Sequence record: PP925844.1
Source of the DNA: Escherichia phage Elenatom
Strand: one strand, 5' to 3'
Length of the DNA: 64,000 nucleotides
In this document: piece by piece, positions 44,222 through 45,042 of the stretch
Layout: each line of letters starts with the position of its first letter
Position numbering within the stretch: the stretch's first letter is position 1
Made by a program: the position numbers and the translations under genes
The notes under the pieces: model-generated
Databases searched by the model: none
Told to the model about the DNA's origin: nothing
The model's input: the letters and a program-made list of their open reading frames with translations, nothing else

Positions 44222-44398
44222 TCAAGTATTGTAAAACATTCGATGCAATCGTTTATACTGTCGAATCATCTTTTTAGTAGGACGAGAATAGGTTCCTACG
44301 CAAGTGGTCATATGAGGGTCCGTAGAATGTCCTTTAATAAAAAGTTTCCAAACCTTACCGCCATTTAACTTTTCAGTATAAACCAATTCGGTTTTCAT
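44222..44398 (-). CDS. hypothetical small protein (58 aa) sharing its C-terminus with Pin
   Basis: hand-translated MKTELVYTEKLNGGKVWKLFIKGHSTDPHMTTCVGTYSRPTKKMIRQYKRLHRMFYNT. Confidence 0.4.
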   Translation of the reverse strand: MKTELVYTEKLNGGKVWKLFIKGHSTDPHMTTCVGTYSRPTKKMIRQYKRLHRMFYNT

Positions 44399-44434
44399 TA
44401 AAATGTCCTGTCAGAAAAAGAATTTTGAGTTTTT

Positions 44435-44920
44435 TCAAGTATTGTAAAACATTTGATGCAATCGCTTATATTGCCGAATCTTTTGGTCAGAAAAAGAAAT
44501 TTGAGTTTCAAGCCATTCAATGTACTCTGCGGCAGCTTGCATCAGGTTACCTTCATAGCCATCGTTATTTTCTTGCGCAGCTAATTTAGCTAATGCGTAT
44601 GAAATACGTTCACCTTGAAAAGCGGCTTTAGGCTTCTGAACATCTTGGCTAGTTCTCTCTACAACTTCTTCAATTTCGCCATTTTCAACGGATTCAGTAT
44701 TCCACAAACACCAGTATGTAATTGGCTTATCATAGATGTTAATAATCTTTCCATCAGAAAGTTCAATTTCAATAATTCCAGTATCAGGTTCTATATCATC
44801 TTCACATTCTTTTGCAAGTTCACGAACTTTAAAGACAGTACCTGCACTAAGTTCCGGCCAGTAATTACATAGCCCTGCATCAACACGATTAATTCTAAAC
44901 CACTTATCTACTGTAATCAT
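44435..44920 (-). CDS. pin: Pin (inhibitor of host Lon protease)
   Basis: about 161 aa from internal ATG (track ORF starts at an upstream TTG); size and position as recalled. Confidence 0.65.
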   Translation of the reverse strand: MITVDKWFRINRVDAGLCNYWPELSAGTVFKVRELAKECEDDIEPDTGIIEIELSDGKIINIYDKPITYWCLWNTESVENGEIEEVVERTSQDVQKPKAAFQGERISYALAKLAAQENNDGYEGNLMQAAAEYIEWLETQISFSDQKIRQYKRLHQMFYNT

Positions 44921-45042
44921 GTCCCATCTCCATATCAATTAAGTCATTTATCGTTGGTTCATTATATACTGTTTCTTCATCAGTGTAAACCGGTTCTTCC
45001 GGCTCTGGCTCTACAGTTTCCCATCTAGCCGCCCACCAAGGT

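Follow-up and report, generated by a model that had tools for sequence, protein, structure and literature searches.

A repeated 15-residue tail at the pin–gene 49 junction of Escherichia phage Elenatom as the probable footprint of two rearrangements

The window analysed here, a 64,000-nt stretch of the genome of Escherichia phage Elenatom (PP925844.1), is a segment of a Tequatrovirus (T4-like) genome in which all genes around pin lie on the minus strand. In the direction of transcription the order is nrdC, three small ORFs, pin, a 58-aa ORF, gene 49 (endonuclease VII) and nrdD, and the 1.6 kb around pin is 98–99.6% identical to many phages of Escherichia, Shigella and Yersinia. The features of the locus are collected in Table 1, where Y and Y′ denote two copies of a repeated tail and X and X′ the copies of a second repeat. 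The local order is X-Y-X′-N-Y′-Z, with N standing for the unique body of the 58-aa ORF and Z for the 41-nt leader of gene 49, including its hairpin. That hairpin (fold of −16.4 kcal/mol, z −3.4), which reportedly has a role in gene 49 regulation, and the late-promoter-like AATAATAAATA are common to all three arrangements of the locus described below, and the T4 sequence is identical.

Table 1. Features at the pin–gene 49 junction in the window
Feature	Position	Strand	Details
pin, 161 aa from ATG	44435-44920	-	ends …SDQKIRQYKRLHQMFYNT, then stop
58-aa DUF7279 gene, paralogue of T4 gp61.4	44222-44398	-	ends …TKKMIRQYKRLHRMFYNT, then stop
gene 49, endonuclease VII, 157 aa, downstream neighbour	43707-44180	-	
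pin, ancestral part, codons 1-146, Inhibitor_I24	44483-44920	-	PF10465, phrog_2167 and native Pin alignment
pin, captured tail, codons 147-161 (KIRQYKRLHQMFYNT) and stop	44435-44482	-	phrog_3272 / DUF7279 matches
Y, repeated tail copy in pin	44432-44479	-	DNA repeat search
Y′, native tail copy (IRQYKRLHRMFYNT, stop and 3 nt)	44219-44266	-	DNA repeat search
X, pin codons ETQISFSD, first copy of second direct repeat	44486-44509	-	22/24 against X′
X′, repeat copy, in the spacer between pin and the 58-aa ORF	44410-44433	-	22/24 against X
X′ remnant, last 35 nt of native unfused pin, non-coding spacer	44398-44432	-	identical to SP1
A-run with recombination joint, fused-pin half / native-pin and 58-aa ORF half	44430-44435	-	
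Hairpin over the gene 49 ribosome-binding site	44186-44210	-	10-pair stem (scan)
Late-promoter-like AATAATAAATA, precedes the gene 49 hairpin	44210-44220	-	

An earlier note, made from the letters of the window, had remarked that pin and the 58-aa ORF share a duplicated 3′ end, and this is borne out by a direct repeat of 48 nt in which 44 of the 48 positions match. The note had put the repeat at about 55 nt and its copies at roughly 210 bp apart; the start-to-start spacing is 213 nt, and the repeat search scores Y/Y′ as a 63-nt family of 84% identity. When the 1.6-kb region was shuffled 100 times, the best-matching pair of 48-mers never exceeded 32 matches (mean 28.4), so the repeat cannot be ascribed to chance. 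Three of its four mismatches are synonymous, and the other exchanges Q and R. Upstream of each tail copy is one copy of a second direct repeat, X/X′, of 24 nt, 22 of them identical, which the earlier note does not mention; X lies just before the tail within pin. The X′ remnant reads (K)TQNSFSDRTF followed by a stop, and it retains both an AGGA Shine-Dalgarno-like element and a TAATG overlap at the start of the small gene. The idea that this AGGA is a new Shine-Dalgarno sequence, evolved after the rearrangement, was rejected, since phage SP1 has the same bases within the coding 3′ end of its native pin.

Judged from its family matches and its pattern of substitution, the 58-aa ORF is a genuine conserved gene under purifying selection (dN/dS about 0.1). 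It passes the gathering cut-off of the Pfam family PF23945 (DUF7279) with 62.7 bits against 24.5 (E 3e-17) and matches phrog_3272 over residues 1–58 (E 3.4e-34), and its dN/dS in seven pairwise comparisons was 0.08–0.26, with 0.08–0.13 within Tequatrovirus and 0.10–0.26 between genera. By tblastn, full-length homologues occur in 412 phage records, and a further ~243 records match the tail alone, inside pin. Homologues were found in Tequatrovirus, Dhakavirus, Mosigvirus and Gelderlandvirus. In the first three of these genera the gene sits just upstream of gene 49 and always carries the tail, as in Dhakavirus JS10 and Mosigvirus moha, where it lies directly upstream of gene 49; a Gelderlandvirus homologue, that of S16, lies in the same region and has a diverged tail, …LTPRLIRRYKRINRLFNF. 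The earlier note had said that its reading would fall if the ORF were a conserved independent gene lacking the shared tail in relatives. A conserved independent gene is indeed what is found, but in relatives it is the small gene that keeps the tail and Pin that is without it.

In fact, the tail is the most conserved part of the DUF7279 family. The C-terminal motif RPTK-x3-R-x2-KR-x-HR-x-F, which stands at residues 39–55 of the 58-aa ORF, is invariant in all 13 aligned members, drawn from Tequatrovirus, Dhakavirus and Mosigvirus and including a paralogue of 38% identity, and the invariant residues (R39, P40, T41, K42, R46, K49, R50, H52, R53 and F55) cluster in the tail. In the AlphaFold2 model of the 58-aa protein, three β-strands precede a basic helix at the C-terminus (residues 42–56) that corresponds to the tail; the best model has a pLDDT of 81.7 and the other four 52–63, and the predicted fold is only moderately supported. 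A search of PDB structures with this model returned nothing at E ≤0.001 (best E 0.27), so the structure offers no functional lead.

Elsewhere in the window, at 19220-19582 on the minus strand between dmd and sp, is another DUF7279 paralogue (PF23945, E 3.7e-20). It occupies the position of T4 gp61.4, and its frame runs ~17 codons beyond the stop of the 85-aa T4 protein. T4 gp61.4 itself, likewise between dmd and sp, belongs to the same Pfam family as the 58-aa protein and shares with it the motif RPTKRQIRQxKR, but it lies at another locus, has a longer N-terminal part and is unrelated to pin. Related GenBank and RefSeq records label the 58-aa ORF a ‘hypothetical protein’. In the GenBank record of RB32 (locus L022, 505-681) the small ORF is noted as ‘similar to RB69ORF087c, JS98orf087clike, pin’; the annotators of RB32 saw its resemblance to pin and left it without explanation.

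The window pin is predicted by family match to be a Lon-protease inhibitor gene. Its product passes the cut-off of PF10465 (Inhibitor_I24) with 160.2 bits against 27 (residues 4–141, E 3.5e-47), and profile positions 1–145 of phrog_2167, which has 146 positions, match its residues 1–146. Residues 147–161 fall outside the Inhibitor_I24 domain; they match positions 44–58 of phrog_3272 and positions 43–58 of the DUF7279 HMM (E 1.8e-5). The tail has no counterpart in the native Pins of NBG2, SP1, IME537, Mosigvirus and Dhakavirus. The Pins of JS10 and moha end in …WLEAQLRFSDEAF or …YLERRLS before the stop, and remoter Pins in …WLERQLEFSSKSF and similar sequences. On these matches, the shared 15-residue tail is a part of the small DUF7279 gene, and the C-terminus of T4 PinA is foreign. 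Since residue 146 is the last covered by the Pin profile and residues 147–161 match DUF7279, Pin borrowed its tail by a deletion-fusion, of 137 nt as set out below.

T4 PinA (UniProt P07068, PF10465), the inhibitor of the E. coli Lon protease, is ~95% identical to the window Pin. Both are of 161 aa, with the fusion joint at the same position and the same neighbours; the joint codons read QK(IR) in the window Pin and RM(IQ) in that of T4, and T4 is without the small gene and the native-pin remnant, both of which the window has downstream of pin. At the position of R53 (CGA), invariant in the small gene, all fused Pin tails have Q (CAA). The tail of T4 Pin has in addition R46 changed to Q, and H52 is N in several fused Pins. 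Differences among the tail copies in Pin comprise four nonsynonymous changes and one synonymous, against none and three among those in the small gene, a contrast that is not significant (Fisher p 0.14) but suggests relaxed or changed constraint on the tail in Pin.

The comparison of the gene 49–pin interval with other T-even genomes that the earlier note had called for brought out a 213-bp block relative to T4 and three arrangements of the locus: ancestral (type A), fused (type B) and fused with the small gene (type C). In type A, represented by NBG2, IME537, SP1 and ZCEC14, a 148-aa Pin ends in …SFSDR(A/T/P)F (…SFSDRAF/RTF in NBG2 and SP1, whose Pins are each 148 aa), and its stop codon and the small gene's ATG overlap in TAATG. 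These native Pins, unlike that of the window, have no tail and their genomes no repeat. In type B, that of T4, Z and gene 49 come directly after the fused 161-aa pin. In type C, that of the window, the fused pin is followed by a 35-nt remnant of native pin and by an intact small gene. In the pin–gene 49 interval the window thus has exactly 213 bp that T4 lacks, with the repeated tail at their borders; the two do not differ in the 41 nt that precede gene 49. The interval in type A exceeds that in type B by 137 nt, and that in type C exceeds those in types A and B by 76 and 213 nt (213 = 137 + 76). Type A in NBG2 reads …TCTGACCGA/GCATTTTAATGAAAAC…ACTAAAAAG/ATGATTCGGCAA…, and type B in T4 reads …TCTGACCGAATGATTCAGCAA….

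Beginning at X′ (AAACTCAAAATTCTTTTTCTGACAGGACATTTTAATGAAAACC…), the window matches SP1 nucleotide for nucleotide, both in the 35 nt taken from the 3′ end of native pin and in the small gene that they precede, and it has the same hairpin and gene 49 as the type-A phages. The end of its pin equals that of three fused loci without the small ORF (L009–L011) save for one codon (CAT in place of AAT). Type C thus combines the left part of one genome, of type B, with the right part of another, of type A. The alleles bear on the parentage as well. The fused tail has NBG2-like alleles at both of its ends (CGA, and CGGCAATATAAGCG), whereas in none of the nine type-C sequences read are X′ and Y′ NBG2-like; they resemble SP1, ZCEC14 or IME537. 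Two different parents would fit this distribution. Around the type-C joint the alleles vary, with QKIR or QMIR in pin, RTF, RAF or KAF in X′, and HSTDPH or SPTDPN in N. Clusters of the fused 161-aa Pin hold 657 member sequences, and those of the native 148-aa Pin about 44. Only some 20 loci were read nucleotide by nucleotide, and the counts for all other records are BLAST summaries; IMG/VR contributed 5 pin loci, too few for a census.

BLAST queries that span the joints are confounded, as the tool joins pieces that are not colinear, and a clean count of the window's arrangement came only from a megablast query with a 44-nt probe across the type-C joint, whose flanks are too short, on either side alone, to seed a hit. 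This probe found 102 phage records, all at ≥95% identity, from phages of Escherichia, Yersinia, Shigella and Salmonella hosts. The presence of the same joint in at least 102 sequenced phages argues that it arose once. The sequences meeting there are ACTTGAAAAT (type B) and GCTTGAAACTC (type A), with ACTTGAAAAAACTC as the product; the A-run is of 4 A in the T4-type parent, 3 A in the SP1-type parent and 6 A in the product. In the type-C phage F1 it is of 5 A, one fewer than in the window and the rest of the type-C phages, which marks the joint as a slippage-prone homopolymer. Because the length of the run varies (6 A, 5 A), the exact breakpoints and the extent of microhomology are not fixable. 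The alternatives are a microhomology of 1 nt, or two at most, and the 7-nt CTTGAAA followed by slippage.

Taken together, these comparisons make it highly probable (about 0.85) that the repeat was left behind by two rearrangements at the pin–gene 49 junction of T-even phages and is not a functional device. The starting point is the type-A state seen in present-day genomes, in which a 148-aa pin ending in …WLETQ(I/N)SFSDR(A/T)F has a stop codon that overlaps (TAATG) the start of the 58-aa DUF7279 gene, which itself ends in …RPTKKMIRQYKRLHRMFYNT and is followed by the hairpin and gene 49. The genome comparison shows that a deletion of 137 nt, without microhomology, then took place in an NBG2-like genome and joined pin codon 146 (CGA) in frame to codon 44 (ATG) of the small gene. 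The small gene was destroyed thereby and the 161-aa chimeric Pin of T4 made (…SFSDR joined to MIQQYKRLHQMFYNT). The deletion is blunt and of 3n−1 nt, a length that offsets the single base shared by the two frames. In T4 the codons flanking the joint are still the ancestral ones (CGA, ATG), and other fused Pins have CAA-ATG (QMIR) or, as in the window, CAA-AAG (QKIR), a pattern that fits a single fusion event followed by point substitutions.

The origin of type C, whose structure is plain in the window, most likely lies in an illegitimate crossover that joined a T4-type genome to one of the SP1 type. A single event in a mixed infection, with its left break in the A-run just past the stop codon of the fused pin and its right break 35 nt short of the native pin's end, would yield the fused pin, the 35-nt remnant and the intact DUF7279 gene that the window carries. 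The remnant retains the ribosome-binding region of the small gene, which should therefore still be expressed. After this single origin, the joint would have been spread by homologous recombination. The order of the rearrangements is not proven. It may also be inferred that the type-C layout is potentially unstable, since recombination between the 48-nt copies Y and Y′ would regenerate the T4-type layout.

Other histories could conceivably produce the same repeat. The earlier note had offered two, a partial tandem duplication and a small gene inserted by recombination using the Pin terminus. For the former, an ancestral genome would duplicate the stretch from the 3′ end of pin through the small gene, illegitimately and in the A-run; the left copy would later lose 137 nt, fusing pin to the tail, and the T4-type layout would follow by recombination between the tails. 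The form of such a duplication is there, in that X-Y-X′-N-Y′ is the order of a tandem duplication with N missing from the left copy; the sequence after the stop is the same behind T4 pin and the SP1 small gene, so the joint is silent on its left parent; and the Y/Y′ repeat would ease the conversion of type C to type B. The direction and mechanism find no such support. The left copy is without the 137-nt middle, and the two copies carry different alleles, X′ and Y′ differing from the NBG2-like X and Y in all nine type-C sequences, so that no simple tandem duplication is seen. The scheme asks for an equal number of rare events and for an intermediate with two full copies that was not observed, an apparent second copy of N being matched in just one of 265 records. 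A Y/Y′ crossover also predicts some fused Pins with CGA (R), but all those seen have CAA (Q). We regard duplication in place as unlikely, though it keeps some weight. Insertion of a small gene behind the pin of an ancestral T4-type genome, by homologous recombination through the Pin terminus, fares far worse and is extremely improbable. It would account for a block that is a clean 213-bp insertion relative to T4 with the repeat at its borders, but recombination within the tail would leave no 35-nt remnant of native pin, and the joint in fact lies in the A-run after the pin stop. Family profiles assign the tail to DUF7279 and not to Pin, other genera have a tailed small gene beside a tail-less Pin, and no decayed tail sequence was found downstream of the native 148-aa Pins, at whose stop codon the small gene begins. 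A mobile insertion, as a homing-endonuclease or promoter/stem-loop (‘PeSL’) cassette of the kind said to occur in T4-type phages, was also considered and rejected, the 213-bp block holding the 58-aa DUF7279 ORF alone. A scan of 44181-44480 found no promoter-like site, and the sole hairpin there is that of the gene 49 leader, which T4 has as well.

A different kind of explanation would be functional, with both proteins needing the same basic C-terminal helix and selection or gene conversion maintaining the repeat. The fused frame is open in several hundred records (the ~243 with the tail alone and the 102 with the type-C joint), members of fused clusters outnumber native ones as given above, the tail is predicted to be a helix, and in a Mosigvirus-like contig the same tail has been joined in frame to pin a second time, independently. 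Against this, the tail copies are 92% identical in nucleotides, synonymous sites included, which argues for common descent and not convergence, and the two copies within one genome hold distinct alleles, which speaks against ongoing gene conversion. The tail in Pin is moreover losing residues that are invariant in DUF7279 (R53, R46 and H52), and the contrast in substitutions (4:1 in Pin, 0:3 in the small gene) points the same way, though at p 0.14 it is suggestive only. Such a shared module is improbable on balance, and it is still more doubtful that the captured basic helix gives the T4-type Pin part of the lost DUF7279 activity or alters its engagement of Lon. If it did, type-C phages would be keeping both genes as activities that are not fully redundant, all published PinA biochemistry would have been done with a chimera whose last 15 residues come from another family, and DUF7279 proteins, including T4 gp61.4, would act in the host-takeover pathway of Pin.

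With the two-rearrangement history, by contrast, the repeat is fully explained as an evolutionary scar, left by an ordinary process in a region of known plasticity. The novelty is modest: there is no evidence for a new mechanism, and what is new is the foreign C-terminus of PinA and the genuine DUF7279 gene. Literature searches on DUF7279, PinA and pin/nrdC/endonuclease VII found no description of the pin fusion and none of DUF7279. Because part of an adjacent gene supplies residues 147–161 of T4 PinA, about residue 146 is where Pin should be taken to end in family alignments, in domain mapping and in structure prediction, and the native 148-aa Pins make the better reference. The Lon-inhibition biochemistry of PinA (Hilliard et al. 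1998, cited in PMC8835725) is that of the T4 161-aa protein only.

The locus also provides a clean natural example in three states (ancestral, fused, and fused with the gene restored) of how deletion and illegitimate recombination reshape the plastic regions of T-even genomes, and two more independent deletions lie at the same spot. In the T4 rII region the deletion r1589 fuses rIIA to rIIB, and T4 deletions between short direct repeats are classical. In those deletion-fusions, too, two adjacent cistrons lose their facing ends and an in-frame chimera results, with joints of little or no homology, as here. They are laboratory mutants, whereas the pin fusion is natural, fixed and widespread in isolates, and, unlike them, the window combines a fusion with the re-acquisition of the lost gene.

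By comparison of sequences, the pin locus is prone to deletion, with independent events of like kind in two further sequences. At 1201-1626 of locus L019 (Logan contig SRR20302901_2936, a single contig), a Mosigvirus-type pin is fused in frame to the last 9 codons of the downstream DUF7279 gene; the fusion ends in …FHRDFYNVY and lies at an ACGTTT microhomology. In Mosigvirus ST0 (locus L021, 901-1071), pin is deleted and two DUF7279 paralogues, one from either side of it, are fused; the chimera consists of the upstream paralogue with the last three codons and the 3′ flank of the downstream one, and the joint is a 9-nt homology, ACTTTTATA.

Some other observations concern Pin and its surroundings. 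In Dhakavirus JS10 (locus L005), Pin is encoded as two ORFs in swapped order, with the C-terminal 57 aa (429-602) before the N-terminal 100 aa (602-904); the gene for the C-terminal domain ends in …WLEAQLRFSDEAF and a stop. The PHROG families 9092 and 10788 match separate halves of Pin, in agreement with this split. Just upstream of pin in the window, inside a 49.1-like ORF, is a near-consensus σ70-type promoter sequence (44961-44989, minus strand; TTTACA, 17 nt, TATAAT; 11/12). Between pin/49.1 and nrdC, at 45043-45431 on the minus strand, two small ORFs replace 49.2 and 49.3 of T4, one of them called an ‘antitoxin from a toxin-antitoxin system’ in RefSeq relatives. Finally, nrdD in the window (41893-43710, minus strand) is an uninterrupted ORF of 605 aa, whereas the T4 gene has the I-TevII group I intron.
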